Shown here in pieces: positions 42,027 through 62,951 of a DNA stretch of 64,000 nt (position 1 is the stretch's first letter; each line of letters begins with the position of its first letter). A program made the position numbers and the translations under genes. Source of the stretch: Nitrospirota bacterium. GTDB taxonomy: Bacteria; Nitrospirota; Nitrospiria; SBBL01; JAADHI01. The stretch spans positions 92,235-156,234 of the forward strand of contig JAJDBX010000074.1 in the NCBI GenBank assembly GCA_029261135.1, written 5' to 3'. The notes beneath the pieces are model-generated. The model saw only the letters and a program-made list of their open reading frames with translations. It made no database searches and was not told the origin of the DNA.

Positions 42027-42098
42027 GCGGGAATAGCTCAGTGGTAGAGCATCGCCTTGCCAAGGCGGAGGTCGCGGGTTCAAATCCCGTTTCCCGCT
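42027..42098 (+). tRNA. tRNA-Gly (GCC)
   Basis: GCGGGAATAGCTCAGTGGTAGAGCATCGCCTTGCCAAGGCGGAGGTCGCGGGTTCAAATCCCGTTTCCCGCT. Anticodon loop CT-GCC-AA. CCA is not encoded. Confidence 0.9.
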
Positions 42099-42126
42099 CT
42101 AATAAATCAATAACTTACAACTTTTT

Positions 42127-43260
42127 TTAGGTTTTTCTATTTTCTGAGTGCAACCACGGTGCAACGGTAGCCTCAGAAGGAGGCGTTGCATCGTCTGCAA
42201 TTGCTTCGACGGCATCTCGTAAGTAACCAGGTGCGAGGTGGGCATATCGGAGGGTCATCCTCAAATTTGAATGACGTAATAGTAGTTGAGCCGCTTCAAT
42301 TCCTTTTCCTGCCATTACAATTCTTGATGCATAATCGTGACGTAGATCATGATATTTAAGATCCTCAATGCCTGTTTCTTTTAATATCTTTCTCCAGGCT
42401 CTTCCAATATTTGCGCCATCAAGAGCTGTCTTGCTTTCAGACAAAAGCACAAATTTTCCTTCACGGGGTAATTTCCAAAGCATATCTTGAACAACCCTAT
42501 TGATCGGAATAAATTTGACCCTGTCATCTGGTTTCTTTGCTTTTCCGTTATAGATTCTTAACTGGTTCAGCGATAAGTCAACGTCAGACCAGAGAAGGTT
42601 TCGGACTTCCCCTTTTCTTAACCCTGATTCACGAGCAAGAAGGCAAGCCGGATAAAGCCAAGAGGGGCCTTGCTTGGCAGCATCTTTGATCTTTATCCAT
42701 TCATCTCCGACAAGGTAACGCACACGTGGAGGAGCATCATCAAGGCTATCTAAATCGGTTGTAGGGTTTGAAGTAGTCATTCCCCATTTTATGGCTTTAT
42801 AAAAAGCAGACTTGATTACCGTTATTTCTCGTTTTACTGTTGAAGGTTGTACGGTCTTGAGTCGGACGGAGATATAATCATCAATAGTTCCCATGCCTAT
42901 TTGATTAAGTGGTTTGTCACTAATAATCTCCAAAAATTGATTTAAAACCTGGTACTCTCTTTTTCCTTGCTTTGCCAGCCGATAACCGTGACGATTCATA
43001 AACACTTCCACCAGTTTGCTCAACCGGGGTGATTTTTGCGGTTGTGGGGTCTGCACCTCCTTTATTTTTCTGTGGAGGATCTCTGAGATCATGGTCTTGG
43101 TGTGAGTTGCTAGCGAGCCGATGGTACCTCGATATCGTTTTCCTCCGCGTTGTGCGGGATATTGGAAATGGTAAGCCCACAAAAGCCCCTTATCTCTCTT
43201 GGCTTGGCTGACCCTGACGGTCACACCCAGTATCTTCAGACTAAATGGCTGTTTTCTCAT
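42127..43260 (-). CDS. tyrosine-type site-specific recombinase (integrase)
   Basis: The track ORF extends to 43341. The ATG at 43260 (MRKQPFSLKILG) has a GGAGG 8 nt upstream and overlaps the upstream stop (ATGA). The catalytic C-terminus is LARESGLRKGE, HDLRHDYASR and LRYAHL. Confidence 0.85.
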   Translation of the reverse strand: MRKQPFSLKILGVTVRVSQAKRDKGLLWAYHFQYPAQRGGKRYRGTIGSLATHTKTMISEILHRKIKEVQTPQPQKSPRLSKLVEVFMNRHGYRLAKQGKREYQVLNQFLEIISDKPLNQIGMGTIDDYISVRLKTVQPSTVKREITVIKSAFYKAIKWGMTTSNPTTDLDSLDDAPPRVRYLVGDEWIKIKDAAKQGPSWLYPACLLARESGLRKGEVRNLLWSDVDLSLNQLRIYNGKAKKPDDRVKFIPINRVVQDMLWKLPREGKFVLLSESKTALDGANIGRAWRKILKETGIEDLKYHDLRHDYASRIVMAGKGIEAAQLLLRHSNLRMTLRYAHLAPGYLRDAVEAIADDATPPSEATVAPWLHSENRKT

Positions 43261-43418
43261 TCTATTTCCTCCACTCTTACTTTTGATATCTTGAGCTGAT
43301 GACCTTCTATTTTGAGTGATACGAAATCGCCGGAATCCCATTTCAATTGATTGATAAGTTCTGGGGGAATAGTGACAACAAGGGTGCCTGAAACAGTGCG
43401 AAGTTTTCTTATGATCAT
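43257..43418 (-). CDS. AbrB/MazE/SpoVT-type DNA-binding protein (53 aa)
   Basis: Below the ORF-track size cut-off. My translation gives MIIRKLRTVSGTLVVTIPPELINQLKWDSGDFVSLKIEGHQLKISKVRVEEIE*, a looped-hinge-helix pattern. Its TGA overlaps the integrase ATG. Confidence 0.6.
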   Translation of the reverse strand: MIIRKLRTVSGTLVVTIPPELINQLKWDSGDFVSLKIEGHQLKISKVRVEEIE

Positions 43419-43505: not shown

Positions 43506-43718
43506 TCAACATTTTTTTTGCCTCATATGATTTGAAATGTATGCACATATATCGCTTGGTCGGTAACGGACGGCTCGGCCCATCTTAACGGATGGAATAT
43601 CTCCTTTTGCTGTTTTTGCTTTAATGGTGGTCTCTTTCAGAGATAATACCTCTGCCACTTCTGACCGTTTCATCAGAGTGGATCTCTTAAACAGACTTTC
43701 CATTAGTAGATCTTTCAT
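43506..43718 (-). CDS. excisionase/AlpA-like helix-turn-helix protein
   Basis: Internal start MKDLLMESLF... at 43718 overlaps the methyltransferase stop (ATGA). The HTH pattern is MKRSEVAEVLSLKETTIKAKTAKGDIPSVKMGRAVRYRPSDICAYI. Confidence 0.6.
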   Translation of the reverse strand: MKDLLMESLFKRSTLMKRSEVAEVLSLKETTIKAKTAKGDIPSVKMGRAVRYRPSDICAYISNHMRQKKC

Positions 43719-44902
43719 GATTTCTTCGTTTCCTCGAACTTGTCTTTTTGTTTTAATCTTGCCCTTATTATTTTCACATATTCGAGGTCTTTCTCTATGA
43801 GAATGCAATCTCTTCCGGTTCTTTTACAGGCAACCCCCGTTGTTCCACTTCCTCCAAACGGGTCAAGCACAATACCGCCTGTTGGGGTTTTGGTGAGTTT
43901 ACAGAGGTATTCCATGAGCTTGACCGGTTTTACAGTTGGATGATGATTATGATGATTGGCCGTTCCTGACCCGTAGGAGACACTCTCTTTGCCGGTTTTT
44001 GTTTTACGCACCAGTGTTGTTATTTTTTCCTCATATCCCATATTTCTTTCTGTTTTGCTCGCCTTTGCACAATAAAAGAATCTTGAAGCACCACCCCTAC
44101 TCACCTCACTTTGTTGATCTAATATTTTTGCCGCTTCTTCGTCTAAGATGATGTTGGAAGGGAAGCGGCCCAAGCTCTGTGGATATCCCTTCCCTTTTTT
44201 TCTTTGAGCAACTATCGGGACATCACTCTTTTTGTATTCCCCCTGTGTCTGATCTTTTTCTCTTGTATCTATCCTCCCCCCGTCAATATTCAATCCGGCT
44301 ACCCCATGTTTTAAAGCATTTTGGGCGTATGTTCCTTCATTTGATTTTACGGCGACGATGATCGGTTCATATGCGGGTTTCAGACCGTGAGACTTCCACC
44401 CGTTCCAATGTTGGGCTTGAGGGGATGCCGGAGCGGTGATATCAAATCCTTTTTTCCTTGATTGAGTGCTACCCACTCCACCCTTACCGACCCCCATAGT
44501 CTTTCTTTCCACTCCCGCCATTTTATCCAACTGTTTGCTAATATCTGTCGCTTTGGGGAACCCAGATCCGTAGAGCCACATGATGCAGTCTTTGAGAATC
44601 CAACCGGACTCTTCAATATGTAGTGCCATTTTGTGTTGTGTTCTTGAACCGGCAAAACACAGCAGTGTCGTACCCGGTTTTGCGACGCGCAGCATCTCTT
44701 TAAATATCTCAACGCTTGGAACATCGTAATCCCATTTTTTGCCCATAAACGAGAGGCCATAGGGCGGATCAGTAATGATCGTATCAATCGAGTTTCCCTT
44801 CATCTTCCGCATGACTTCCAGACAGTCGCCGCGGGTGACTGTTATGTGTGTTTTATGGATGCTTTGGAGTTTTTTGATTTTTCTTTTCATGTTCTGTTTC
44901 AT
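43715..44902 (-). CDS. DNA methyltransferase, N6-adenine/N4-cytosine (beta-class, PF01555-like)
   Basis: 395 aa. Catalytic motif IITDPPYG comes first, then the SAM motif VLDPFGGSGTTGVA near the C-terminus. Confidence 0.85.
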   Translation of the reverse strand: MKQNMKRKIKKLQSIHKTHITVTRGDCLEVMRKMKGNSIDTIITDPPYGLSFMGKKWDYDVPSVEIFKEMLRVAKPGTTLLCFAGSRTQHKMALHIEESGWILKDCIMWLYGSGFPKATDISKQLDKMAGVERKTMGVGKGGVGSTQSRKKGFDITAPASPQAQHWNGWKSHGLKPAYEPIIVAVKSNEGTYAQNALKHGVAGLNIDGGRIDTREKDQTQGEYKKSDVPIVAQRKKGKGYPQSLGRFPSNIILDEEAAKILDQQSEVSRGGASRFFYCAKASKTERNMGYEEKITTLVRKTKTGKESVSYGSGTANHHNHHPTVKPVKLMEYLCKLTKTPTGGIVLDPFGGSGTTGVACKRTGRDCILIEKDLEYVKIIRARLKQKDKFEETKKS

Positions 44903-44924
44903 GTTGGATGAATCTTGTAAGGGA

Positions 44925-46076
44925 TCATGTATGCCTTCGTATTTTTTTCATTATTTCCTGAACCACGTTTACCGTTACCGCATTCCCTAAAGCCTTATAC
45001 CTCCGTGAGTCACTGACTCCTTTCGTCCACCCGTCCGGGAATCCTTGCAATCGTTCGCATTCGGTCGGTGTGAGCCGTCGGATTTTGGGCGGTTCACCGA
45101 CAAAATGGACATCGGTCGTGTTGTGGTGTTCCGCTATCACGGTTGGCGCGATAAACGGCTGCCTCATACCTCCCTGCATTGTGTTGAGCGTCGGGCTGAT
45201 TCCGCTTGCCCCATATACTCTGTTGTTTGAATGCTTCGGATGATTCATTTGCGCGACCCCAGAATGAGGTCGTCCACACAGCCTCCGCCTCTTTTCAAGG
45301 CGCTCATCACTTCTTTCTTCCGGTGAAATTTTGCTCTGAACCCGTTGCCGTTGCGTTTGTTTCTCCTGTTGTATTCCATCAGCTTTTTCACTCTGGCTTT
45401 GGAGAGGAAATACTTGGGGTCTGGGTGTTCCTCTAAGATGTCCGACAATGAACACCCGCTCCCTGTTTTGGGGGACGCCGAAATTCTTGCTGTTAAGCAC
45501 CTGCCACCCGAGGTCATACCGAAGTTCATCAAGCGTGGAGATGATTGTGTAGAATGTGGCCCCTTGGTCGTGAGATAGAAGCCCTTTGACGTTTTCAAGC
45601 AGTAAAAGGCGTGGTTGTTTTTCCCTGATAATCCGAGCGATTTCAAAAAACATTGTGCCTCTTGTGTCCGCAAATCCCGCCCTTTTTCCGGCAATGGAAA
45701 ATGATTGACAAGGAAATCCTCCGACCAAGAGATCAAAGTCCGGTAATTCTTTTGCGTTGATTTTTGTGATATCGCCATAGTTTTTGTGTGTGAAGTGCCG
45801 TTCATAGATTTGGATTGCGTATGGGTCGATTTCTGAGTAGCCAATACAAGTGAGTCCGTGTGAACAGATGTCAAAGCATTCGCTACATTGTCTTTTCGTA
45901 TTTCCAATTCCTTGTAACCTTTGTTTCGTGTTCTTAATGCACAGCTCTTCATCTGCTTGCTCAATACCGAGTTCAAAACCACCGATGCCGGAAAACAACG
46001 AGAGGTATTTCATCCCTTGCGAATTGGAGGCGTGGTGATTGCGCTCATAGGCGGTTTTTGGGTTATGACGAGTCAT
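44925..46076 (-). CDS. DNA (cytosine-5)-methyltransferase
   Basis: 383 aa. Motif I LFSGIGGFELG, IV GGFPCQSFSIAGKR, VI ENVKGLLS, VIII QNRERVFIVG, IX RRLTPTECERLQGFPDGW and X GNAVTVNV. The variable region looks abnormal (see findings). Confidence 0.8.
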   Translation of the reverse strand: MTRHNPKTAYERNHHASNSQGMKYLSLFSGIGGFELGIEQADEELCIKNTKQRLQGIGNTKRQCSECFDICSHGLTCIGYSEIDPYAIQIYERHFTHKNYGDITKINAKELPDFDLLVGGFPCQSFSIAGKRAGFADTRGTMFFEIARIIREKQPRLLLLENVKGLLSHDQGATFYTIISTLDELRYDLGWQVLNSKNFGVPQNRERVFIVGHLRGTPRPQVFPLQSQSEKADGIQQEKQTQRQRVQSKISPEERSDERLEKRRRLCGRPHSGVAQMNHPKHSNNRVYGASGISPTLNTMQGGMRQPFIAPTVIAEHHNTTDVHFVGEPPKIRRLTPTECERLQGFPDGWTKGVSDSRRYKALGNAVTVNVVQEIMKKIRRHT

Positions 46077-46110
46077 ATAATTTCACTCAGAAACAACAGA
46101 ACGTATTGAT

Positions 46111-49071
46111 TTATCGAATGAAACGGCAGAAATCATAGACCAGCCCCACGGAGACTTTTTGTCTCTCATTTTCTGGGATTTCCTGCTCAATTCGGTCTTG
46201 AATTTCAGTCATTTTCTTTTCTTCTGTCGTGAGCGTGATGACTCGGTGATATCCTGCGTTGAGGCATTTGATAATATTTTGAAGTTCTTGATTAGCTGAT
46301 GTCGTAACAGAAATTTCAACGGCAATTCGCTTACCCTGCTTTTCTATGCCAAGGTCTACCGACTCGCGTCTGCCGGGAATTTGCTCTTCAATAGTCGCTT
46401 TGAAGCCGTTGCTTTCGGCCTGTACATTAAGCACTGACTGCCAGTACCGGTGAAGTTGTCCGCCTTTTCCGCTTAGCGAAACATGTTGCTGAGGAAGGGC
46501 ATCAAAACCCTTTTTGGTGAGGAATAAATACTTGGCTACCCGTGAACCGATTCCGAGGTGGGTTTCCACCTCGGTGAGTAATCCGTTCTCTTTGAGTTTT
46601 CTTTTGAGTCGGTCGCCCATGTAGGCGCTCAAGCTCTGTGCTTTGTACAGCTTTGTCACGGATAAAGTTGGGTTGTTGAATACACATTCTAGAAATGTTT
46701 TTTCCTGGACCAAAAGTGTTTCTATGGATTGGGTTTTCTTTTTTTTAGTGTTTGTGCCAGAGGCGATAGCCGATGTACTGAGCGCCCGTTCTACTTCTTC
46801 CAGTGGTCGGCAGAAATTCTTTCTGGAATGTTTGATGATTTCATCTTTGTAAGATTTCTGCCGGTGTCTCATCTTATGAAGGGACGCGTTGAAAGAATCA
46901 GTTGCCCGTTCCATGCGGATGATGGCCTGTCCGACCGGTAAGTCTTGAAGGTCTTGTGCGGTAAATTGTCCGAGTTGTTTTTGAAGGTAAAGCGCGTCAT
47001 TGACACCGCACCGCAACACAATCAGTGTCCCGATATTTCCCAACAGAGCTGCTGAGATGTCTCTATGGAGATATTCGGTCATCTGTGTCGCCACCACCAG
47101 TGCTACGCGGTATTTTCTGGCTTCAGAAACCAAGCTCGTAATGTTTGCGACATTTGAGCGGGAACCGGCAAAATTTTGGAACTCATCCACGATAAGAGTG
47201 TAGAGTTTTCTTTTGGCTCTGGGGATGGAAGCGCGTGCCATTGTTGCGATCTGAAATTTCGACAAAAGGAAGGAACCGAGCAAAAAAGCTGCGTCTTCAC
47301 CCAAAGCACCCTTGCTGACGTTGGCAATAACTATTTTCCCAGAATTGATCATCTCAAAAAAATCGAGCTTATTTTTCTGAGCAATGATATTTCTCACAAT
47401 GGGATTGTCCACGAATTTTGAGAGCTTATTAATAATCGGATCAATCGCGCCTTTGGGGAGCGCAGAGAATCGGGTCTCCCAAAATGCTCTGATGTCGGGA
47501 TCATCTACCGTTGCAATCACATTCTGTCGATAGTTCGGGTTTAAGAGAAGTCGGGGTATATCTCGAAGAGTTTTCTCGCCGTCCGAATACAACAGCGTAT
47601 TGGTGCAAGATCTCAAAATCCACTCCATCCTTGGCCCCCATCCATCGGCAAAGAACTTTTCAAACGACACGAGCACGTCCGAGCACAACATCTCTTTTTC
47701 CCGCTGGTCTGAGGCATCCAAAATGTTAAAGGCCGGTGGGAAAGAACGATCCGTGAAATTGCAATAGATGGTGTCAGCAAGCCGGTGTTGTGGAATGAGA
47801 GATAAAAATTCTTCTGCGGCATCTCCATTGGGGTCAATGAAGGCGCATCCGTAGCCATTATTTATGATGTTCAAGAAATGAGAAAGAGCGGTGGTCTTGC
47901 CTGTTCCGGTGCCACCAAAGAGGGCGACGTGGCGGGTCAGCCATTCCTCAGAGATTCCGACTTCGGTTTCCACGCCTCTGTGCTGGTTTGTACCTAAAAT
48001 GACCAGACTGTTTTTTGTCGCACGTTTTGGTGCCGGTGCGGAATGCCGCGCGGTTTCGACTTTTTTGGTTAGCGCATCAGCTCCGGGGATATGGGCGAGT
48101 GCAGAAAGCTCCCCGGCGTTTAAGAGCATCCCCGTGGAGCGGTTTGTTCGGGAACGTATGCTTGAAGATGGGTAGGTTTTTTTGAGTGGTATAAACCCAT
48201 TTTCACTTTCATACAGAGTAAAAAAACTCTCCAGTCTGTCTAAGATTGTGTTGGTGGAACCGAAAAGCCGAAGGGAGACTGCAAAGAATGGCTTACTTAC
48301 TTTATGTTCTGCGATTTTTGGAAGATCGGCTATGTCATAGAAAGGAGAACGAGAATTATCAAACTCGTCGCGGGATGCCAGTGCTATGTTATTTTTCCAA
48401 TTCTCTTTCACCGGTGTGAAGAGCACCTGCATTCCTCCACATGCTCCTGTCGGTACACTTTCCAGCGCTCCAATCAGAGAGCGGAAAGGGTCTGTTTTGA
48501 ATTCCGATGTAATGGGAAAGAAATGGGAAGTTTTGAGGCGGTAGCACCTGACAACAAATGGTGAAATAATTTGTGCTTCTTTTAAAAGGTCGGTTGCTGG
48601 ATATACTTCCGATTGCGGAAAATGAGTGAGAGTTTGAGAGATTGCCCCATGCACGTCTTTTACGGGAACTGACAATTGAAACGATATAGTCTCTCTAAAT
48701 GCGATGACCTCAAAGCTCCATATACCTCGCATGGAGAGGGACGCAAGCCACTGCCCCGAGAGATAGGAAGAACCCTTTTCTTCAGAGCTTGGACAAATCC
48801 TTAATGTCTGGAAGGATTGGAAAGTGGCTTTTTCAATAGAAGGTTTCTTTTCAGATTTGTCAAAAAGAAAGTCAAAGAAATGTGGGTGCTTTACCTCATA
48901 GGTAAAGGCAGAAAAAGGAGGCTCAAGCGCTATGGCATAGGGGTAGATGATGGTTCCTCCTTCTCCCCGTTCCATTTCATAAACAACCTTTTGTCGTTGT
49001 TGTTCAAACATATTCATAGCGTTTTCCGTTAAATTAGGATTGTGGTATCGCATCTGGGGCAGACCATCCAT
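46111..49071 (-). CDS. large TraD/VirD4/TrwB-type P-loop ATPase fused to wHTH-like and nuclease-like C-terminal domains
   Basis: 986 aa. Walker A FGGTGTGKTT, Walker B LYTLIVDEFQNF and RKYRVALVVATQ. The ~380-aa N-terminal region carries no motif I recognise. The C-terminus has LKRKLKENGLLTEVETHLGIGSRVAKYLFLTKKG and an E..D..ExS core (IEEQ...ESVDLGIEK...RIAVEISV). Confidence 0.7.
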   Translation of the reverse strand: MDGLPQMRYHNPNLTENAMNMFEQQRQKVVYEMERGEGGTIIYPYAIALEPPFSAFTYEVKHPHFFDFLFDKSEKKPSIEKATFQSFQTLRICPSSEEKGSSYLSGQWLASLSMRGIWSFEVIAFRETISFQLSVPVKDVHGAISQTLTHFPQSEVYPATDLLKEAQIISPFVVRCYRLKTSHFFPITSEFKTDPFRSLIGALESVPTGACGGMQVLFTPVKENWKNNIALASRDEFDNSRSPFYDIADLPKIAEHKVSKPFFAVSLRLFGSTNTILDRLESFFTLYESENGFIPLKKTYPSSSIRSRTNRSTGMLLNAGELSALAHIPGADALTKKVETARHSAPAPKRATKNSLVILGTNQHRGVETEVGISEEWLTRHVALFGGTGTGKTTALSHFLNIINNGYGCAFIDPNGDAAEEFLSLIPQHRLADTIYCNFTDRSFPPAFNILDASDQREKEMLCSDVLVSFEKFFADGWGPRMEWILRSCTNTLLYSDGEKTLRDIPRLLLNPNYRQNVIATVDDPDIRAFWETRFSALPKGAIDPIINKLSKFVDNPIVRNIIAQKNKLDFFEMINSGKIVIANVSKGALGEDAAFLLGSFLLSKFQIATMARASIPRAKRKLYTLIVDEFQNFAGSRSNVANITSLVSEARKYRVALVVATQMTEYLHRDISAALLGNIGTLIVLRCGVNDALYLQKQLGQFTAQDLQDLPVGQAIIRMERATDSFNASLHKMRHRQKSYKDEIIKHSRKNFCRPLEEVERALSTSAIASGTNTKKKKTQSIETLLVQEKTFLECVFNNPTLSVTKLYKAQSLSAYMGDRLKRKLKENGLLTEVETHLGIGSRVAKYLFLTKKGFDALPQQHVSLSGKGGQLHRYWQSVLNVQAESNGFKATIEEQIPGRRESVDLGIEKQGKRIAVEISVTTSANQELQNIIKCLNAGYHRVITLTTEEKKMTEIQDRIEQEIPENERQKVSVGLVYDFCRFIR

Positions 49072-49442
49072 GAGAATATCTTTCCGCAGTTACTACAGGG
49101 GCTGAAGGCGTGTTTCTCGTAATGCGGATTTATCCCGCATGAACATCTATAACGGCTCCTTAGATTCAAAACAAAACCGCACCCGAGACAATACGCGTCG
49201 GAGATGATTAGCTCTTGTAACCAACGCGAAACAGGTATCAGTCGAAAGGTTAGTACATGGAGAACGAAAAGAAATACCACCGCCTCGGCAAGTTGGTTGT
49301 CCTTGATTCGATTAGCTTCAGATGTCCAGACTATGCAGGTAATGAGAATTGCAAGATGGTAAAAAAAAGTGATGATACGCCGCGCTCCCCGTACACTGAA
49401 TATTTGAGGACTGTAACGAGTGGGTTGTTTTTGATATCTCAT
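49029..49442 (-). CDS. membrane protein with two TM helices and a C-terminal double zinc ribbon
   Basis: 137 aa with a GGAGG SD. Hydrophobic segments are IITFFYHLAILITCIVW and AVVFLFVLHVLTF. The C-terminus is CLGCG...CSCG...CSNCG...CPRC. Confidence 0.6.
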   Translation of the reverse strand: MRYQKQPTRYSPQIFSVRGARRIITFFYHLAILITCIVWTSEANRIKDNQLAEAVVFLFVLHVLTFRLIPVSRWLQELIISDAYCLGCGFVLNLRSRYRCSCGINPHYEKHAFSPCSNCGKIFSWMVCPRCDTTILI

Positions 49443-49443
49443 G

Positions 49444-49635
49444 CTAACGCCTCCATCTCATGCGTGGTCTTTGAGTCCTACCGCCACCTGATTTTTGACG
49501 AGTTCTTCCCCAAAGCAATAGAGCCAATCTCTTCACGGAAAAAACCATTGTCCTGTATGCAAGAGGACTCATTTTTTTCAAAACCGTAAGCGGGATGAAC
49601 AAAAAGACAAGCGCTGCTATACAAGTAACTAACAT
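49444..49635 (-). CDS. small single-pass membrane protein with an Arg-rich tail
   Basis: 63 aa. An AGGAGG lies 7 nt upstream of the ATG, inside the NYN gene end. N-terminal TM is MLVTCIAALVFLFIPLTVL. The stop lies 1 nt before the next ATG. Confidence 0.55.
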   Translation of the reverse strand: MLVTCIAALVFLFIPLTVLKKMSPLAYRTMVFSVKRLALLLWGRTRQKSGGGRTQRPRMRWRR

Positions 49636-50225
49636 CGGATTGCCTCCTTAATAGGTCGGAGGCAGTCAAGACCGATTTCAATGTTTGCAGTGATATGTGG
49701 TGAGGTTTTTGCGTTGAGCCGATACGCTGTTGAACCGGCAAGAGACAAGGTCGCAACCTTGCTTTGTGGCCTGATTCGTAAAATTGCTTCTGCGGTATCA
49801 GAAACGAGGTCTCCATCGCCACTTGCAAGAACAACCACGTCATAGTGGGATGAAATTGTGAGCGCTCCTGCGATGAAGCAGAATAGGTTATCGGCATTGC
49901 TTTTCCGCTCAGTGCCTTTATGGGTCTGTACTGTCTGTATGACTTTTGCGTGGGCCGTCCATCCGAGCTTTGAGAACTGTTCGCATCGTGCCGTTTCACG
50001 GGGCGGGTGAGCGAATATAAGGTAGCGAAATGCAGAACCCGTCGCCATGTCAATGGTCTGTCCTAAGCGTTCCCAGGAAATAGAGAAACCGAGATCTCGT
50101 GCTCCCGCATCAATGTTCTGAGCGTCTGAGATCACCAGCACATACTTGTCTCGTATGATTTCCAATGAGCCTGTTTCTTTTGCTATTTCTACGTTTTGCA
50201 TCCGATATTTTGTTTTGTAATTCAT
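49629..50225 (-). CDS. NYN-domain (LabA/DUF88-like, PIN-related) predicted ribonuclease
   Basis: 198 aa. Contains KYVLVISDAQNIDAG and NADNLFCFIAGALTISSHYDVVVLASGDGDLVSDTAEAI, the NYN acidic pattern. Confidence 0.7.
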   Translation of the reverse strand: MNYKTKYRMQNVEIAKETGSLEIIRDKYVLVISDAQNIDAGARDLGFSISWERLGQTIDMATGSAFRYLIFAHPPRETARCEQFSKLGWTAHAKVIQTVQTHKGTERKSNADNLFCFIAGALTISSHYDVVVLASGDGDLVSDTAEAILRIRPQSKVATLSLAGSTAYRLNAKTSPHITANIEIGLDCLRPIKEAIRC

Positions 50226-50268
50226 TGTTGTTCCTTTCTTTTCTTTGTTCTGTGAGGATTTATATAAA

Positions 50269-50298
50269 GGGAGAAGGGTTCTTTCGTTCCCTTCTCCC
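50269..50298 (-). terminator. hairpin plus U-tract between the vWA and NYN genes (terminator or attenuator)
   Basis: GGGAGAAGGG (50269-50278) and CCCTTCTCCC (50289-50298) form a perfect 10-bp stem with a 10-nt loop. The minus-strand transcript continues UUUAUAUAAAU. Confidence 0.45.
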
Positions 50299-50307
50299 TT
50301 CCAGCAT

Positions 50308-50949
50308 TCAACTGAACATCTTCTGTTTCATGAGAAGAAGATGGAGGATGGCTTCCTCAACGACCTGAACCTTGGTTTTATTTCCCATTGCCCATCCCAT
50401 TGAGGCAGAGAGGTCAATTACAAGCACGGTGGTTTCGGAGCGATGATGGAAACCGTTTGAGTTCCCGTTAGAGGAGAAGTGGGTAAGTGTATTGGTGAGT
50501 TCGCGGAGAGATTTTACCGGAACGAACTTGCCTCTATGTGTGGAAGCTGAAATTTTGCGGAGAGTTGATTCATCGAAGCTGTTCCCAAACCCGATGGTAT
50601 TGATATTAATATGGGATTTGTAAGCACGCTGAACCATAGGCCAAATTCCGCCAGGATTGACATTTGCTTCCCCATCTGAAAGAAGCCAGATCCTCCGCAA
50701 GATTCCACGTGGTGTTTTTTTGCACATCTCAATTCCAACGCGGAGTCCATCGGCGATATTTGTGCGACCCTTAACGTGTTTGTGGAGCCGTTGAGAACGT
50801 TCTTGCAGCCAATGCGCATGAGGCTCGGCAGGAAGAGCGATTTGAAATCCTTCTTCATTGAATCCAACGATGCTAATACGATCCGGTGCATGTACAACGT
50901 ACCGATGGTGTTGATTTGTTTTTTTGTTTTTAAATTTCAATCCAAACAT
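50308..50949 (-). CDS. von Willebrand factor A (vWA/MIDAS) domain protein with apparently permuted element order
   Basis: The track ORF runs to 51234. The ATG at 50949 (MFGLKF) has AAAGGAG 7 nt upstream. The middle of the domain is GRTNIADGLRVG, RRIWLLSDGEANV and ININTIGFG. The DxSxS start motif TTVLVIDLSASMG...KTKVQVVEEAILHLL lies at the extreme C-terminus. Confidence 0.7.
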   Translation of the reverse strand: MFGLKFKNKKTNQHHRYVVHAPDRISIVGFNEEGFQIALPAEPHAHWLQERSQRLHKHVKGRTNIADGLRVGIEMCKKTPRGILRRIWLLSDGEANVNPGGIWPMVQRAYKSHININTIGFGNSFDESTLRKISASTHRGKFVPVKSLRELTNTLTHFSSNGNSNGFHHRSETTVLVIDLSASMGWAMGNKTKVQVVEEAILHLLLMKQKMFS

Positions 50950-50968
50950 GATGTTCTCCTTTTTTGTG

Positions 50969-51011
50969 GAGTGAAGCAGAAACGGGCAGAAACCCCGTCT
51001 CTGCTTCACTC
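50969..51011 (-). promoter_or_regulatory. 18-bp RNA hairpin in the 71-nt spacer between the 88-aa gene and the vWA gene
   Basis: GAGTGAAGCAGAAACGGG (50969-50986) pairs with CCCGTCTCTGCTTCACTC (50994-51011) around a 7-nt loop. The single mismatch becomes a G-U pair only in the minus-strand transcript. No U-tract follows. Confidence 0.45.
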
Positions 51012-51020
51012 GGGAAATTG

Positions 51021-51287
51021 TTAATGATTGGTTCGAACGCCCCGCCACAGCTGAAATGGTCGTCTGTTTTGCCCGACGATCATCCCTTGACGGATGTTGC
51101 AGGCCCCGTGCGGACATGCGTAAATGAAGAGAAAGCCATACCTCTGGTGAGGTACCGTCCCAATGTGCATCATCCGACACGGGAGCAGGTGCTTCATCCC
51201 GTTGTTGCAGAGGAGGGAAAGGCTTTCCATCCACCTTGGTTTATTTATGTTTCTTTGGTACCCATTTTGTTTTTTGAATAGAGCCAT
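51021..51287 (-). CDS. small basic Cys/His-containing protein, unknown function
   Basis: 88 aa. Near-ideal SD AAAGGAGGTAATC-ATG. C27, C37, C58 and C63 plus several His residues. First gene of the minus-strand operon. Confidence 0.5.
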   Translation of the reverse strand: MALFKKQNGYQRNINKPRWMESLSLLCNNGMKHLLPCRMMHIGTVPHQRYGFLFIYACPHGACNIRQGMIVGQNRRPFQLWRGVRTNH

Positions 51288-51448: not shown

Positions 51449-51476
51449 TTTCAGGTGGAAATATTTCCACCTGAAA
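51449..51476. promoter_or_regulatory. perfect 28-bp palindrome in a divergent intergenic region (candidate operator)
   Basis: TTTCAGGTGGAAAT|ATTTCCACCTGAAA is a 14+14 palindrome with no spacer. It lies 80 nt upstream of the ECF S-component ATG and 162 nt upstream of the 88-aa gene ATG. Confidence 0.45.
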
Positions 51477-54652: not shown

Positions 54653-55216
54653 ATGGATAAACTTGTCGATCTTTTATACGAAATAGGGATACTTAAAAGA
54701 GTAAAGCGAAGCGGTTGGTGGATCGCGGGTGTGAAAGATCCCGAAACCGTGGCTGAACATTCATTTCGGGCAACAATTATCGGATATATGTTGGCAATGT
54801 TGGAAGGTATAGATTCTAACAAAGTTGTCAAAATGTGCCTCTTGCATGATATTGAGGAAAGCCGTCTTACTGATATTAACAAAATCACATCCGAATATAT
54901 TGACAAAAAACAGATGAAACAGGAGGCTATATATGACCAGGTTTCTGGTCTCCCTTCTCCTATAAAAGAAGAGTTTCTCAATCTGGTTGAGGAGTTTACC
55001 GAACAAAAGACTTCCGAAGCACAACTTGCCAGAGACGCTGATTTACTTGAATGCGCTATCCAGGCAAAGGAATATATCGAGTCAGGACATGAAAGTGCAC
55101 GGGACTGGATTGTAAATATCCGGGGCCTTCTGAAAAATGAAGTATCAAAAAATATGTTAAAAACCATTGAAGAGACCTCTTCTCAGCAGTGGTGGCAAGG
55201 ACTGAAAAAATTGTAG
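54653..55216 (+). CDS. HD_3-family phosphohydrolase (YfbR-like 5'-deoxynucleotidase family)
   Basis: 187 aa. Contains KRSGWWIAGVKDPETVAEHSFRA, LLHDIEESRLTDI and ARDADLLE. Confidence 0.75.
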   Translation: MDKLVDLLYEIGILKRVKRSGWWIAGVKDPETVAEHSFRATIIGYMLAMLEGIDSNKVVKMCLLHDIEESRLTDINKITSEYIDKKQMKQEAIYDQVSGLPSPIKEEFLNLVEEFTEQKTSEAQLARDADLLECAIQAKEYIESGHESARDWIVNIRGLLKNEVSKNMLKTIEETSSQQWWQGLKKL

Positions 55217-55224
55217 GAATCTTT

Positions 55225-56517
55225 ATGGTGGATACGGTTGTAAGCAAGCATGATAGGGAGGTTATCGATGCATTTTTGAGAAAGTGCTTTCCTGTGCTGT
55301 ATGACAAACTCAGGAATTCATTCGAATACCTTGAATTTAAACAAGGTGATCCACCAATATTATCATCAGGAAAGGAAAGCGATGGTAGCTTATACATTGT
55401 CTTTAAAGGACCGGTAGAGGTAAGGACTGACAAGCTTCATGTCCCTCTACATTGTGGCAATATTTTTGGGGAATTTGAAGAAATAGGAGAGCTGTATGAG
55501 GCTGATGTTATTGCGGGAAATAGCCAAAAAGATCCTGATATTGATTTTTTTCTTGAGTGGAATATACCTGAACTTGGAATAGGGAAAAGTAACAATGTCA
55601 TTGTAATAAAGGCAAGCCCGGATGTAATAAAAAAAATAAAAGAAGACATAATTTTCTGGCGGGAACTTTGTAAATTAAAAAGTCAAAAGATCAAACGCAT
55701 TCAATGGCATTATTTTATTCTTAGAGAGTCTGAAATAAAGGACAAATTAAAGAGCTTAATCAAATATTCCTCCGATTTAGGCGATCATGCTACAGGTATT
55801 ACAGATTGTGGTGATGGATGGAAGTTGGGCATTGGTATAAAAATATTGGCAAAATTTATAGGTGCAAAACACAAAAAAAGAACAGAAAAAATTATAGAAG
55901 ACGAATGGAAAGGTAAAATAGAGAATAGCTCAATTTTTATTCCGAAGGAAGCGATGAATCCTGTACCGGAAGGTTCAGTTATTTTGTCAGGTTCCTATTC
56001 TAGTAATCCATCAGTTTTTTTAAACGTACAACTTACAACACACAAAAATATTAATGCTGATGAAGACAAAATAACTTTTAAAACGCCAAAAATGAATAAA
56101 GATGGCTTTAAAGACCTTAACTGGTATCCAGAAGATATAGTCGCTATCTTTCCAAATGGTGGGTCAGGCTATAAGCCTATTGAATATAAAGGTAAGTGCA
56201 GTTACCTGAAAATACCGAAACATAGGAACGAAATCAGAGAACTTCTCCTGGCAAAAATTGGCATTTCTGGAGAAGTGATATTTTTATATCCCTGCCTTAA
56301 TGATGAGACAAGTTTGTCTGAATACAAGTGTGTAAAGGGCAGTCTTATTGATGAAGCAGAAGTTGAAAGTATGGCAGAGAATAAAAAAAAGAAGACAAAA
56401 AATATTTTCTCCTGGTTTGGAATATCAATAAAAACTTCATCTCAGCACTTTGCCTTTATTAATTTAATGAATGTCGATTATGTCATTTGCGATCAGAAAT
56501 TGTATCGAGCAAGGTAA
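55225..56517 (+). CDS. hypothetical protein with a possible N-terminal cNMP-binding-like barrel
   Basis: The track ORF starts at 55189, inside the HD gene. An ATG at 55225 lies 8 nt after the HD stop. LYIVFKGPVEVRTD...CGNIFGEFEE...ADVIAG weakly resembles a cyclic-nucleotide-binding fold. The rest is unrecognised, and the DNA is very AT-rich. Confidence 0.4.
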   Translation: MVDTVVSKHDREVIDAFLRKCFPVLYDKLRNSFEYLEFKQGDPPILSSGKESDGSLYIVFKGPVEVRTDKLHVPLHCGNIFGEFEEIGELYEADVIAGNSQKDPDIDFFLEWNIPELGIGKSNNVIVIKASPDVIKKIKEDIIFWRELCKLKSQKIKRIQWHYFILRESEIKDKLKSLIKYSSDLGDHATGITDCGDGWKLGIGIKILAKFIGAKHKKRTEKIIEDEWKGKIENSSIFIPKEAMNPVPEGSVILSGSYSSNPSVFLNVQLTTHKNINADEDKITFKTPKMNKDGFKDLNWYPEDIVAIFPNGGSGYKPIEYKGKCSYLKIPKHRNEIRELLLAKIGISGEVIFLYPCLNDETSLSEYKCVKGSLIDEAEVESMAENKKKKTKNIFSWFGISIKTSSQHFAFINLMNVDYVICDQKLYRAR

Positions 56518-56605
56518 GAAATTGAGTTTTTATATTAAAGTTTAAGGATTGATTCATATTCCCATTTCTCAATTAAGAAGACCATTGTCATTATTTAGTT
56601 ATAGT

Positions 56606-56645
56606 GCGAATAAAAAAGGGAGAAGATCAATCTTCTCCCTTTCAA
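56606..56645. terminator. bidirectional intrinsic terminator between convergent genes
   Basis: GGGAGAAGA (56618-56626) and TCTTCTCCC (56631-56639) flank a 4-nt loop. A-run upstream and T-run downstream, so the minus transcript ends UUUUUUAUU. Confidence 0.6.
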
Positions 56646-56664
56646 ATACAAGTAATGGTTTAGT

Positions 56665-57141
56665 TTAGTGTTTCTTTGATTCCGGCTTTGCTTCAAGACA
56701 AATTCTGTGAATATAGGGGACTGTCCTCATATCTATTACATCCTCAGGTTCTCCGTATTTTCTCAAAAAACGTTCGAGTAAAAGTAATCCACCACCACAG
56801 TTTGGTTTGATGATAACGCCATCCCTTCTTAAGCATTTCCTTTTTGTTGTTCTCTCATTAAACTCAATGAGATGATATTTCCCATCCCTCTTACTATCAC
56901 GTTCACCCAAGTATTCACTCTGTTTGAAGGCTAAAATATCAGATGCAAGACGGATACAATCTTTACATTGAGTCAAATGCCGCATCTCTCTTCTGTTAAG
57001 GTGTCGTCTGGATTTGTCATAGAGTATATCCACGATTTCCTCCGGGGAAAGATGAATTCTTACGATTGAGCTGAGAAATTCCTGGCTTTTAAATATTTCT
57101 TTGACATTCTCTTTCGAAAACATATTTTCATCAATAATCAT
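56665..57141 (-). CDS. hypothetical protein with an Hx3Cx2C (zinc anti-sigma-like) motif
   Basis: 158 aa with a GGAGAGG SD. Contains RHLTQCKDC, which fits Hx3Cx2C. No adjacent sigma factor. Confidence 0.4.
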   Translation of the reverse strand: MIIDENMFSKENVKEIFKSQEFLSSIVRIHLSPEEIVDILYDKSRRHLNRREMRHLTQCKDCIRLASDILAFKQSEYLGERDSKRDGKYHLIEFNERTTKRKCLRRDGVIIKPNCGGGLLLLERFLRKYGEPEDVIDMRTVPYIHRICLEAKPESKKH

Positions 57142-57287
57142 GGCACCTCTCCTTGTTAAGGGTTACATCTTCCCAAAAGCTCATTCTTTCGAGAAAATAG
57201 CCCTCAACAAAGAGGCGGTGAGAACATCATGTTTTTGTGAAAGTGCTTGAAGTTTTTTCAGCAAATCCCCTGAATAAATACTCCTAT

Positions 57288-57316
57288 ATAGTATATTAAA
57301 TATCGTATTTTGTCAA
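57288..57316 (-). promoter_or_regulatory. candidate sigma70-type promoter for the 158-aa gene
   Basis: On the minus strand: TTGACA (57316-57311), a 17-nt spacer, then TACTAT (57293-57288). Confidence 0.35.
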
Positions 57317-57332
57317 GTGTGAGTAGGGACAA

Positions 57333-58505
57333 TCATCCAGGTAATGTATCTGCACTGAAGGGTTCTGAGGGCATCCCGTCGATCATTAATTTTAGGTATA
57401 TCCGGTAATTAGGGAGCCGTATGAGGTCTCCGGCTGAAAAAGTCGGGTAGAATTCTTTTTCCAACACTTCCGCATCAGAAAGACCGAGCCGAAACGAAAT
57501 AATCGTTCCGGCATTACCCAAGATCGCATCTCGAATCTGAGGGTCAAGTTGTGAGAGATATTGATGTGCCAATACCATCCCTACCCTGTATTTACGCAGT
57601 TCCGAAAGCATGTTTGCCAGACTGAGCGTTGTGAAACTTTGGAACTCATCCAGGTAGATAAAAAAGTCACGACGGCTCTCTTCCGGCACCTCTGCCCGTT
57701 TGAAGGCGGCAAGACCCAAGCTGGTCACGAGTAGTGATCCGAGAAGGGTTGTCGCATCTTCTCCAATTTTTCCCTTGGATAAATTGACGAGCAATATCTT
57801 TCCTTCATCCATGATCTTTCTCAGATCAAACGAGCTTTTAGGTTGTGACAGGATGCCCGAAAGACGCGGGTTTGCTAGAAACGCCCCTACCTTGTTTTGT
57901 ATTGGCGCGATGGCCTCTTGCCGGAAGCGAGCCGTGTAGCTTTCAAATTCTCGCATCCAGAACCCCCTTACTTGCGGATTACTTACCCTTGCGGCCACAT
58001 TTTTTCTGTAGGCGGCATCTTCCAAAAGTCTCAAGATATCTGACAAGGTCGCTTGGGGCTGTTCAAGCAAAGCCAGAAGCGCATTTCTTAAAATATGTTC
58101 CAGACGCGGCCCCCAAAAATCGGGCCAGAGTTTTTTGAAGGTCTCCAGAAGCCCGGAAGCCGCCAGCGCTATTCGTTCAGGGGGTACACGTTCAAGAGGG
58201 TTAAAAAAGAGCTGTTGTGTGTTATTTGGAATATCAAAATGGATCAGATCCTTTTTCCGATGATCGGGCAGGGTCGTCATGACCTTCTCAATAAGATCCC
58301 CGTGAGGATCAAGGAGCGCAAATCCATTTCCTGATTCAAGATCACGTCGCATCATAGTTTCCATTAAAGTCGATTTTCCTGTGCCTGTTTTTCCAATGAT
58401 GTAGGTATGAGAGTGTCTGTCTATGTGTTTAATCCCAAAAAGCTTTTTCTCTGTGCGGAAGTTTGTCTTGGCAAAATATGTTACAGGGTTGTCGGATCGT
58501 GGCAT
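57333..58505 (-). CDS. stand-alone TraD/VirD4/TrwB-type P-loop ATPase (paralog of the 986-aa protein core)
   Basis: 390 aa. Walker A GKTGTGKST, Walker B FFIYLDEFQSF and RKYRVGMVLAHQ. Colinear with residues ~385-760 of the 986-aa protein (DPxGD, WGPRxExILR, GKIxxxNxSKG, GED). No TM segment. Confidence 0.7.
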   Translation of the reverse strand: MPRSDNPVTYFAKTNFRTEKKLFGIKHIDRHSHTYIIGKTGTGKSTLMETMMRRDLESGNGFALLDPHGDLIEKVMTTLPDHRKKDLIHFDIPNNTQQLFFNPLERVPPERIALAASGLLETFKKLWPDFWGPRLEHILRNALLALLEQPQATLSDILRLLEDAAYRKNVAARVSNPQVRGFWMREFESYTARFRQEAIAPIQNKVGAFLANPRLSGILSQPKSSFDLRKIMDEGKILLVNLSKGKIGEDATTLLGSLLVTSLGLAAFKRAEVPEESRRDFFIYLDEFQSFTTLSLANMLSELRKYRVGMVLAHQYLSQLDPQIRDAILGNAGTIISFRLGLSDAEVLEKEFYPTFSAGDLIRLPNYRIYLKLMIDGMPSEPFSADTLPG

Positions 58506-58652
58506 TTCTTCATGATGAAGGCTTTAGCCTCATGTTCAAAGAACGGTAAGTTGTCCTATAGCCATAGAACCCCTTCCTTTCTGTTTCCACCTGTTCACAT
58601 AAAGTAGACATGTTCTTTAAAAAAACATGAATCCCATAAAAGGAGATCTGCG

Positions 58653-59495
58653 ATGGCACAGCAAGAACTTGAAAGAAAAAAGGACAGAGTTGGAACTCAA
58701 CTCCTGATCATTTCCAAGGTTGGAAATGGGTTCCGGGTTTATTCCCCGGAATCTCCGGGGCAGTCATATATTGTGGGTTGCGGTCATAAAGGGCCGACCT
58801 GCACTTGTCCCGATTTTCAAACCCGCAATGGCGATCCGAAACAGCGATGTAGTCATATCATCGCCGTAAGAGAGCAAGTGGGGGAGTTAGAAGACATCTT
58901 TCCTCAAACGCAAGCGGAGCACCAAACCGGTGAGCAGGTGCAACAAGCCGACTCAACGGTTGCGCATCAGGGAACACAGATGCACATCAAACGAAGCGTC
59001 AGTCCGGATGGACGGATCGACTCGTTTTCGGTTTCCTTTTCCTGTGGCGTGGACATGAAGACAGTGAACGAGCTTGTCATTCATGCCACAAAGATGCTTC
59101 AGATCCAGTCTGTGATTGTCGGAAGCTTCTTGCAGAAAAAAACCAAGGAGAATGGTCAAACGACAACCAAGCCGCAAGAAACAAACGGTGTAGTACCAGC
59201 CAAAATGCTCACCATCGGCGGAATGCCGGGGAAATGGGGACAGATGCTTTTTATTAACGTGAAAGTAGATGGAATTGGCAAAGTCTTAAAGCTCTTCGGG
59301 AGCGTGAAGCAACTTGAAGGCCATTTGAGAGACTCCAACTTTCCACACCTGGCTCCGACGAGCATCAGAGAGGGAACTCGTTTAAATCACCCCTGCCGGG
59401 TCACGACCAAACCGAGCAGTGATGGAAAGTATCTGAATATCATCAAGGTCTTTCCGCTTGAACAACAAAATGGACAGGGGAGGAACGGATCATGA
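58653..59495 (+). CDS. SWIM zinc-finger protein
   Basis: 280 aa with an AGGAG SD. CTCPDFQTRNGDPKQRCSHIIAV fits the CxCxnCxH SWIM signature. The C-terminal ~170 aa are unrecognised. Confidence 0.6.
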   Translation: MAQQELERKKDRVGTQLLIISKVGNGFRVYSPESPGQSYIVGCGHKGPTCTCPDFQTRNGDPKQRCSHIIAVREQVGELEDIFPQTQAEHQTGEQVQQADSTVAHQGTQMHIKRSVSPDGRIDSFSVSFSCGVDMKTVNELVIHATKMLQIQSVIVGSFLQKKTKENGQTTTKPQETNGVVPAKMLTIGGMPGKWGQMLFINVKVDGIGKVLKLFGSVKQLEGHLRDSNFPHLAPTSIREGTRLNHPCRVTTKPSSDGKYLNIIKVFPLEQQNGQGRNGS

Positions 59496-60307: not shown

Positions 60308-60314
60308 AAAAACG

Positions 60315-62933: not shown

Positions 62934-62951
62934 TTTATTACTCCTATATTT

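Follow-up and report, generated by a model that had tools for sequence, protein, structure and literature searches.

A probable integrative island of a Nitrospirota bacterium carries an atypical VirB4-lineage ATPase together with a separable Cys/His, permuted vWA and NYN gene trio

The locus described here occupies positions 43715-51287 of a 64,000-nt window, by which we mean the whole stretch of DNA analysed (contig JAJDBX010000074.1 of the Nitrospirota bacterium assembly GCA_029261135.1); all coordinates below are window positions. We describe it as an integrative island with an atypical motor ATPase of the VirB4 lineage and, alongside it, a second and undescribed group of three genes encoding a small Cys/His protein, a circularly permuted vWA protein and a putative NYN ribonuclease, called the trio below. 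A preliminary description had presented nine co-directional open reading frames (ORFs) with tight junctions. The ORF table confirms the minus strand but places eight genes within 43715-51287, xis being the ninth, and eleven minus-strand genes are present once xis, a MazE-like gene and the integrase gene int are counted with the eight (Table 1). The gene layout is real, and the earlier observation of it was largely correct. Read directly from the sequence, the NYN stop codon overlaps the start of the 63-aa gene (ATGTTAG) with AAGGAGG upstream, 1 nt separates the 63-aa stop from the ATG of the 137-aa gene, the spacings to the C5 and the N6/N4 methyltransferase (MTase) genes are 34 nt and 22 nt, and the last MTase gene runs into xis through an ATGA overlap. 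The 71-nt gap between the 88-aa gene and the vWA gene holds a hairpin as claimed, and so do the 82 nt that separate vWA from NYN, here with a U-tract (a 13-bp stem followed by UUUAUAUAAAU, z -4.4 versus shuffles). The overlap reported between the 137-aa gene and the 986-aa ORF exists with the annotated start of the latter; with a start at M19/M21, which alignment to homologues favours, it gives way to an 11-nt gap.

Table 1. Features of the island and of its two edges, ordered by window position
Feature	Position	Strand	Evidence and remarks
tRNA-Gly(GCC)	42027..42099	+	Left island junction; ARAGORN, Rfam 74.6 bits
Tyrosine integrase (int)	42127..43341	-	Pfam Phage_integrase 3e-21, Int_N 8e-8; 30% identity to the L166 integrase
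53-aa MazE/AbrB-type DNA-binding protein	43257..43418	-	MazE_antitoxin 30.1 bits (cutoff 24.7); phrog_661
xis, 70 aa, excisionase-type HTH_17	43506..43718	-	HTH_17 1.7e-8; TIGR01764 excisionase 6e-7
N6/N4 DNA methyltransferase, beta-class, large insert, orphan	43715..44902	-	Pfam N6_N4_Mtase 4.6e-33; PADLOC MTase_II 6e-42
C5 cytosine DNA methyltransferase, orphan	44925..46076	-	Pfam DNA_methylase 1.2e-88 (profile 1-323/324); TIGR00675 4e-93
986-aa ATPase ORF	46111-49071	-	ORF table
Predicted PD-(D/E)xK-fold nuclease domain, ATPase residues 872-985	46117..46458	-	AlphaFold2 (AF2) model and Foldseek
Predicted MarR-type winged helix, ATPase residues 781-857	46501..46731	-	AF2 model; Foldseek MarR/SlyA/PadR; phrog_11046 regulator 2e-4
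VirD4/HerA-type P-loop motor, ATPase residues 351-735	46867..48021	-	Walker A GGTGTGKT, Walker B VDEFQN
DUF8128, predicted VirB4-type N-terminal domain, ATPase residues 55-350	48022..48909	-	PF26449 on homologues; AF2 pLDDT 82.5
137-aa protein	49029..49442	-	Transmembrane (TM) helices 23-41 and 51-69; C-terminal 8-Cys zinc-ribbon region; TM scan
63-aa protein	49444..49635	-	N-terminal TM helix, basic tail; first gene of the conserved triple; TM scan
Putative NYN (PIN-like) ribonuclease	49629..50225	-	Pfam NYN 1e-4
Hairpin and U-rich tract	50267..50300	-	Between vWA and NYN
Circularly permuted vWA protein, 213 aa	50308..50949	-	Metal ion-dependent adhesion site (MIDAS) complete: C-terminal DLSAS, T of GRTN, D of SDGE
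Hairpin, 18-bp stem	50969..51011	-	Between the Cys/His gene and vWA; dG -35.9, z -7.3 versus shuffled controls
88-aa Cys/His protein	51021..51287	-	First trio gene; strong AAGGAGGT Shine-Dalgarno
28-bp perfect palindrome	51449..51476	.	Distal island edge; unique in the window

The 986-aa ATPase has four predicted parts. For residues 55-350, the top 14 Foldseek hits in the PDB were all R388 TrwK/VirB4 (E 2.5e-6 to 9e-4, prob 1.0), and the hits that followed were unrelated (E>1e-2). The motor matches Pfam TrwB_AAD_bind (43.6 bits, cutoff 20.5) as well as DUF87; a profile search of the PDB returned TrwB first (4.5e-8) and then HerA, DotL and DptH (1.2e-4), PADLOC returned mad8 (1.4e-19, 68.8 bits), and the motor residues are invariant in the alignment of homologues. 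The best NCBIfam hit of the protein, CedD, spans about 80 residues around Walker A and reaches 43 bits against a cutoff of 600, and the curated VirB4 model TIGR00929 (VirB4_CagE) is failed with 23 bits against a cutoff of 643. Pfam gave no CagE_TrbE_VirB, AAA_10 or FtsK_SpoIIIE hit, and a TM scan found no N-terminal TM helix. The C-terminal 207 residues were modelled (predicted local distance difference test, pLDDT, 88.7) as a MarR-type winged helix and, after it, an alpha-beta-beta-beta-alpha-beta domain, for which Foldseek matched Bax1, AF1548, the Can2 nuclease domain, EcoT38I and the R2 restriction-like endonuclease (RLE), in addition to weak hits to CoiA_nuc, AHJR-like and PDDEXK_9. These PD-(D/E)xK fold matches agree with the nuclease-like end proposed earlier, and the invariance of H874, D906 and E919 across 59 family members argues for an active nuclease. 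The label "TraD-like", in turn, was imprecise, since the N-terminal 300 residues match only VirB4/TrwK structures; judged by the models, the protein is better described as a VirB4-fold N-terminal domain (NTD) joined to a VirD4/HerA-like motor, a winged helix and a nuclease. The same NTD qualifies one part of the statement that the window holds no relaxase, VirB4, pilin or replication gene, the other three being unseen in the island.

Close relatives of the ATPase are rare, about 12 being found among 5.8 billion proteins at 35-45% identity, with full-length members of 956-1199 aa. They carry PF26449 (DUF8128) together with TrwB_AAD_bind/DUF87, and one of them (P0013) has a fused Nudix domain, an arrangement reminiscent of pSAM2 Pif. 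A scan with the winged-helix/nuclease tail yielded 1,870 representative proteins, 649 of them at E<=1e-10, in which the tail ends ATPases of ~950-1120 aa, ends type IV coupling protein (T4CP)-like ATPases of 560-820 aa that have no DUF8128, or stands alone; with about 1,870 representative relatives in several architectures, the function of the tail is probably widespread. Several of these relatives (P0134, P0145, P0144 and P0136) add a C-terminal excisionase-type HTH_17 domain, a fusion that ties the tail to excision and to the handling of element DNA. In more distant members (P0015 and loci of the L009/L013 type), TM helices are fused straight to DUF8128, recalling proteins in which VirB3 and VirB4 are fused.

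The wider DUF8128 family is plentiful in genomes of the Patescibacteria, or candidate phyla radiation (loci L005-L163, for example L008, L012, L013 and L025). Its recurrent flanks, mostly at Patescibacteria loci, are the housekeeping genes for SecDF, TopA, FtsW, MraY, DprA, MurG and PBP2, and some loci encode the two halves apart, as a TM-DUF8128 protein and an ATPase-only protein. In these reduced bacteria the DUF8128 ATPase gene appears to be near-core and VirB4-like. No consistent small TM partner was seen in the wider family, and we rejected it as a guide to the close subfamily, since its housekeeping flanks are not a type IV secretion system (T4SS) context and are uninformative.

To learn what travels with the ATPase, the contexts of eight distinct close ATPase loci were inspected. 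A homologue of the 137-aa protein is encoded directly upstream of the ATPase in L001, L002/3, L164/5, L167 and L168 (tblastn/blastp, E 1e-11 to 1e-35), the size of this TM and zinc-ribbon partner in close relatives being 115-137 aa; at L004 a different two-TM protein takes its position, and the L166 contig is cut at the ATPase, with the upstream genes not visible. A gene of 59-68 aa precedes the 137-aa-type gene in L001, L002, L164 and L168, its product being single-TM in L001, L002 and L164, and the 63-aa protein is weakly similar to its L164 counterpart (7e-5). The genes for the 63-aa protein, the 137-aa protein and the ATPase thus form a conserved triple, with small membrane genes ahead of the ATPase at every locus whose upstream DNA was readable. 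A word-index search with the 137-aa protein found only the protein itself. The "membrane zinc ribbons" of the preliminary description apply to the 137-aa protein, with two TM helices and eight cysteines, but not to the 63-aa protein, which has a TM helix and no zinc ribbon. VirB3 proteins are small (10-15 kDa) two-TM proteins whose gene adjoins and often overlaps virB4, and some systems have two VirB3-like genes (PMC12857230). The 137-aa protein is likewise small, with two TM helices and a gene that abuts or overlaps the ATPase gene, and is slightly oversized from its zinc ribbon; no VirB3 Pfam hit was obtained at E<=0.1. By analogy in size, topology and position, we regard it as VirB3-like and as a putative membrane anchor. 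We found no polytopic VirB6-like protein, VirB8, pilin or further T4SS family in the island, and none that the related loci conserve.

The remaining neighbours of the ATPase vary. A recombinase usually lies beside it, directly downstream in L002/3, L166, L004 and the window; it is a tyrosine recombinase in L002/3, L166 (with HTH_17 as well) and the window, and a large serine recombinase in L004. Replic_Relax was found in L001 and L167, DnaG-like primases in L164 and L167, and ArdA in L166. Across the eight loci, vWA is present in three, NYN in two and MTases in two. Only in L167 do vWA, NYN and MTases recur with the ATPase, in a locus encoding NYN, a small Zn protein, vWA, an N6/N4 MTase, a C5 MTase, a TM protein and the ATPase; vWA alone recurs in L164/5. 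The vWA and NYN proteins of L167 belong to different lineages, unpermuted or distant, with 30% and 23% identity to those of the window. In L164/L165 (L164 2833-9321), four DnaJ-domain proteins, several of them with TM helices, surround the vWA gene near the ATPase triple, which is an unusual combination.

The trio lies upstream of the triple. Its vWA domain is recognised by Pfam (VWA, 2e-9), and the permuted order claimed for it is real: two swapped high-scoring segment pairs were obtained against the normally ordered vWA of L167, and positions 1-34 of the Pfam profile map to the C-terminus, where beta1-DxSxS-alpha1 is located. The 213-aa product is an exact entry in a public protein collection, and in view of this entry a longer vWA ORF reaching 51234 was discarded as not being the gene. 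For the putative NYN ribonuclease, the Pfam score of the protein itself is marginal (23.3 bits, cutoff 24.2), and the assignment leans on its homologues, which bear PF01936 and in which D34, D112 and D137 are invariant. A search recovered 95 relatives that share 33-57% identity with it and come from Planctomycetia, Acidobacteria and other groups, many of them annotated with PF01936; across 34 sequences, N37, N110 and the flanking glycines of G136-D137-G138 are invariant as well. In the Cys/His family, C27, H33, C58 and C63 are invariant.

Three independent trio contexts were inspected. At L169/170, a reverse transcriptase-Cas1 fusion (RT-Cas1) and Cas2 are the immediate neighbours of genes whose products are, in order, a Cys/His protein (39% identity with the 88-aa one, E 5e-19), a 213-aa vWA protein in the same permuted order (58%) and NYN (52%). 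In L171, a Cys/His protein, a vWA remnant and NYN lie beside type III RAMP, Cas6 and Cas2 genes, and in L172, a Planctomycetia chromosome, the order is Cys/His, vWA, an inserted kinase-NACHT and an extracytoplasmic function (ECF) sigma gene, and NYN, beside a type I restriction-modification (R-M) system. Identities across these contexts are 39% for Cys/His, 52-58% for vWA, whose permuted order is kept in L169 and L172, and 43-52% for NYN. The ATPase is absent from all three, and, judged from these gene neighbourhoods, the trio is an independent unit separable from the ATPase. In L169 and L172, too, a stable GC-rich hairpin stands between the Cys/His and vWA genes; at the vWA/NYN junction of L169 a long hairpin is predicted, which folds no better than shuffles (z -1.9). 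Relatives of the NYN trio were not found in 2.9 million viral contigs, NYN had no hits among PLSDB plasmids, where vWA gave weak generic vWA hits only, and PADLOC matched none of the three genes.

A CRISPR-associated NYN is a Mn-dependent single-stranded RNA ribonuclease (bioRxiv 10.1101/2024.04.08.588522), and systems linked to CRISPR or to conflict repeatedly contain vWA proteins (PMC10910872; PMC7159879); the trio is undescribed in these three papers, which catalogue CRISPR-linked vWA or NYN genes. The NYN of the trio resembles the CRISPR-associated one in its intact acidic site and its place beside CRISPR loci. Unlike vWA-MoxR-VMAP and TerY-P systems, the island has no MoxR ATPase, VMAP, kinase or PP2C, a kinase-NACHT interrupting the trio only in L172, and unlike the vWA proteins of conflict systems, that of the trio is circularly permuted and paired with a small C-H-C-C protein. 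We consider the trio a probable RNA-targeting immune or abortive module. It has about 95 relatives, is not represented in PADLOC and adjoins CRISPR adaptation genes as well as type III genes; a new module with an accessory or defence role is plausible.

Sigma-70/ECF sigma-factor genes adjoin the trio in L169 (2336-4473) and L172 (9233-9805), and an RtcR-type sigma-54 activator gene lies upstream in L169/L170; these neighbours hint at dedicated transcriptional control of the trio. A conserved TM protein of ~170-180 aa with a weak LemA-like hit is encoded directly after NYN in L171 (1557-2105) and L172 (10644-11159). The window lacks this gene and has the 63-aa gene in its place after NYN.

The claim of two DNA methyltransferases stands (Pfam C5 MTase 1e-88, N6_N4_Mtase 5e-33). 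Both match the MTase_II and orphan-MTase models of PADLOC. No partner endonuclease was found for either, no PADLOC restriction endonuclease model matches any island protein, and, as had been stated, Pfam, NCBIfam and PADLOC recognise no restriction endonuclease among the proteins of the locus. A type II R-M system was rejected, since the cognate endonuclease is lacking and MTases accompany the ATPase in only two of the eight loci. The MTases would fit self-protection of a mobile element.

Comparison with other assemblies helps to delimit the island. Its integrase gene adjoins tRNA-Gly, and two Logan contigs from other samples, which match the left flank at 99.99-100% identity, stop within the tRNA, at 42051 and 42056. 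All six island proteins tested were present in one NCBI contig only, and they are missing from the Logan assemblies that hold the left flank; all 11 left-flank host proteins tested also occur in Logan assemblies. Since the energy-coupling factor (ECF) transporter genes to the right (51562 onward) recur in a Logan assembly, we place a strain-variable island of ~9.4 kb at about 42.1-51.5 kb, beside tRNA-Gly. The right boundary is a probable one, because no repeat of the tRNA 3' end was found: the expected right edge has no attachment (att) repeat of at least 8 nt (longest shared word 7 nt), and from the tRNA 3' part up to 64 kb there is no 18-mer with <=3 mismatches and no blastn-short hit. The only Logan contig on that side, L175, starts inside the ECF-S gene and is uninformative. 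Positions 59781-59798 match at 17 of 18 nt, but to the tRNA 5' part and inside a coding gene, and were rejected as an att site, the match probably being due to chance. Short contigs carrying relatives showed no terminal overlaps in a circularity test.

At the left end, the integrase probably starts inside its ORF, because the ORF overlaps the MazE/AbrB-type gene. The L166 integrase, its relative, sits after the L166 ATPase homologue. No toxin partner was recognised for the 53-aa MazE/AbrB-type gene, which lies between xis and int, and an Rfam scan of the window returned no RNA family besides tRNA-Gly. At the distal edge, the palindrome at 51449-51476 (TTTCAGGTGGAAAT/ATTTCCACCTGAAA) lies between the distal promoter region of the island and the ECF transporter operon and might serve as an operator, as a terminator for both directions or in recombination.

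With evenly balanced confidence, we read the locus as a composite ~9.4-kb island of separable modules sharing one direction of transcription, with a backbone around the VirB4-lineage motor and with the MTases and the trio as cargo. The best-supported composition of the backbone is int, the MazE/AbrB-like regulator, xis and the conserved three-gene translocation unit (63-aa protein, 137-aa protein and ATPase). The ATPase triple is most likely a minimal DNA-transfer module, for which we infer both direction and substrate. After excision by Int and Xis, the membrane-anchored motor would bind the element through the winged helix, like FtsK-gamma and Streptomyces TraB; the PD-(D/E)xK domain would nick or cut the element DNA, like MOBC relaxases; and the motor would pump the DNA out via the type IV channel of a helper or unaided. 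The two orphan MTases could pre-methylate element or host DNA against restriction, and the trio would be a portable immune module otherwise found in CRISPR and R-M islands. The preliminary description had offered a DNA-transfer apparatus as one of two explanations. It now appears the better fit for the ATPase sub-module only, since the N-terminal fold is of VirB4 type, the partner gene is VirB3-like and a winged helix comes after the motor. A bolder version, which we consider doubtful, would make the triple a self-sufficient and hitherto undescribed minimal DNA-export machine for ~10-kb islands without a full T4SS, and the trio a new RNA-targeting immune module. On the modelled folds, coupling protein, VirB4 and relaxase would then be combined in one chain, with the winged helix reading a site and the restriction-fold domain acting as nickase.

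Several points weigh against the composite-island reading. Genes for a VirB6-like polytopic channel, a pilin, a canonical relaxase and replication are all lacking in the island, and autonomous transfer is hard to picture in a host that is probably diderm, as the presence of TolB indicates. The expected direct repeat of the tRNA 3' part is missing. The Foldseek hits carry no alignment coordinates, and the modelled likeness is placed on the non-motor N-terminal part of VirB4 because the P-loop region lay outside the query. The same ATPase clade serves defence (MAD8, 1.4e-19; DptH), and in Patescibacteria the wider DUF8128 family sits among housekeeping genes, not mobile elements. Eight ATPase loci and three trio contexts are small samples. 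Moreover, a functional link between the modules may exist, because the NYN stop overlaps the 63-aa start and L167 has independently combined NYN, vWA, MTases and the ATPase.

Among known systems, VirB4 (TrwK) with VirB3 (TrwM) resembles the triple in the predicted NTD fold, in a motor of the VirB4/VirD4/HerA clade and in a small two-TM gene directly upstream of the ATPase gene, the arrangement diagnostic of virB3 and virB4. Unlike VirB4, the island ATPase scores far below the cutoff of TIGR00929, its motor is nearer to TrwB/VirD4 by sequence, it has an extra C-terminal winged helix and nuclease, its partner carries a zinc ribbon, and genes for VirB6, VirB8, VirB2, VirB1 and a relaxase are missing. 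The coupling proteins VirD4, TraD and TrwB share the TrwB-type nucleotide-binding domain; in contrast to them, the ATPase lacks an N-terminal TM anchor of its own, and no relaxase family hit was found in the island. Streptomyces TraB alone moves double-stranded DNA, with the help of small membrane Spd proteins, and reads a cis site (PMC12857230). Like TraB/pSAM2-type elements, the island is small and tRNA-associated, has int and xis, and encodes one large motor of hexameric type, with a winged helix behind it that might recognise a cis site and with small membrane proteins alongside; unlike them, it has a motor outside the FtsK/SpoIIIE type and a nuclease domain, its host is probably diderm, and the window lacks a RepSA-type replication gene. 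MOBC relaxases are members of the PD-(D/E)xK superfamily (PMC12857230). With their coupling proteins (pAD1 TraX; CloDF13 MobC/MobB) they offer a further possible parallel, at fold level only, in pairing a restriction-endonuclease fold with a T4CP-type ATPase for DNA processing and delivery, but both activities would be fused in one polypeptide in the island.

The strongest of the rival explanations, in our view an unlikely one, holds that the membrane proteins and the ATPase-nuclease are defence or entry-exclusion cargo that cuts incoming DNA at the inner membrane and is ferried by integrative elements. The mad8 match, the PDB profile match to DptH of the Dnd restriction system and the conserved acidic residues of the nuclease fold speak for it, as does the company of MTases, of a trio known from defence islands, and of a paralogous ATPase (57333-58505) in a nearby low-GC island with Cas4-like, HD-CE/HATPase and LmuB-like genes. 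Related P-loop domains and adjacent MTases are shared with MADS (MAD8) and Dnd (DptH); MAD8, however, is ATPase-only (about 314 profile positions) with neither the VirB4-type NTD nor the tail, and the island has no dnd/ssp modification genes. It is the triple that remains constant beside varied recombinases, whereas the recognisable defence genes are the variable ones. The tail relatives fused to an excisionase-type HTH also count against a defence function, as does the VirB4-type NTD, a domain that is at present known from T4SS and Ced transfer machines alone, and no self/non-self marker gene is consistently present, MTases occurring in two of eight loci.

Considerably less probable is a Ced-like DNA-import or competence-type device, in which the VirB4-like motor would pull DNA in rather than export the element. 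CedD is a VirB4-like DNA-import ATPase whose NTD is a structural homologue of that of VirB4, and the Ced/Ted ATPases CedB and CedD work with small membrane partners and no relaxase (bioRxiv 10.1101/2024.09.27.615246). The island shares the VirB4-like predicted fold, the small membrane partners and the lack of a relaxase, CedD, which is essential for DNA import in Saccharolobus, is its top curated-family match, and the wider DUF8128 family is near-core in Patescibacteria with DprA and TopA among its recurrent flank genes. Against this, the CedD match is the short and low-scoring one around Walker A. Ced itself is chromosomal and needs the VirB6-like CedA and the CedA1 pilin, both absent from the island, and the close subfamily is rare and confined to small recombinase-bearing islands.

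Slightly lower still, and very improbable to us, ranks the other explanation in the preliminary description, namely that the eight or nine genes are one modification-dependent defence system in which the MTases mark self, the ATPase-nuclease restricts and vWA and NYN act as sensor and effector. It draws on the tight co-directional genes with overlapping junctions, on the repeated gene content of L167 and on weak hits to MAD1, MAD2 and MAD8. However, the neighbours are not conserved with the ATPase in the eight close loci, an outcome that the preliminary description itself had named as refuting; most of these loci have no MTases, vWA or NYN (the ATPase-nuclease lacks MTases in six of eight), the trio occurs elsewhere without the ATPase, and L167 drew its vWA and NYN from other lineages. 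Stable hairpins part the trio genes, and the excisionase-type fusions of the tail relatives weaken this explanation further. MAD6, MAD7 and MAD8 are mandatory in the published model of MADS (bioRxiv 10.1101/2023.03.30.534895); MAD6 and MAD7 are absent here, and MADS was rejected, the only hits being mad8 and a generic mad2 MTase hit. PADLOC matched the locus to no named defence system, in line with the preliminary description, which had been unable to match it to one. A defective provirus with the ATPase as its genome-packaging motor, suggested by phrog_5156 (1.4e-63), a weak large-terminase PHROG match and distant homologues in Bacillus jumbo and SPO1-like phages and in 19 IMG/VR contigs, is scarcely credible and was rejected, as capsid, portal, tail and lysis genes are absent from the island, the only full-length IMG/VR relative (L176) lies beside a prophage and not inside it, and the viral contigs hold no relatives of the NYN trio.

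Many small genomic islands are thought to ride on helper elements. A recurrent motor predicted to unite, in one chain, a domain of VirB4 type with a winged helix for reading DNA and a nuclease of restriction fold, with a VirB3-like anchor of its own and varied recombinases beside it, is a testable candidate for the transfer of such islands; if this is true, the VirB4 lineage extends past canonical secretion systems in bacteria, in parallel to archaeal Ced. For annotation, the locus teaches that tight co-directional packing within an island does not prove one system.

A second low-GC (35-39%) island of conflict-type genes lies at window positions 54653-63989. It encodes a YfbR-like HD protein, 442-aa and 158-aa proteins that are unknowns, a T4CP-like ATPase-only protein, a SWIM-like 280-aa protein, a Cas4-like PDDEXK_1 nuclease, an 810-aa HD-CE and HATPase_c protein, and an LmuB/SMC-like 345-aa protein that extends to the window end. 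The T4CP-like protein (57333-58505, minus strand), a second such ATPase in the window, corrects the earlier gene inventory. It is a 390-aa paralogue with 37% identity to residues 381-712 of the 986-aa protein (E 2e-68) and also matches mad8. Proteins 52-56% identical to it occur in many of the loci fetched, among them the second ATPase of L166. In L133 and L139 its relatives again adjoin a PDDEXK_1 (divergent Cas4-like) gene, which suggests a separate recurrent pair of ATPase and Cas4-like nuclease.

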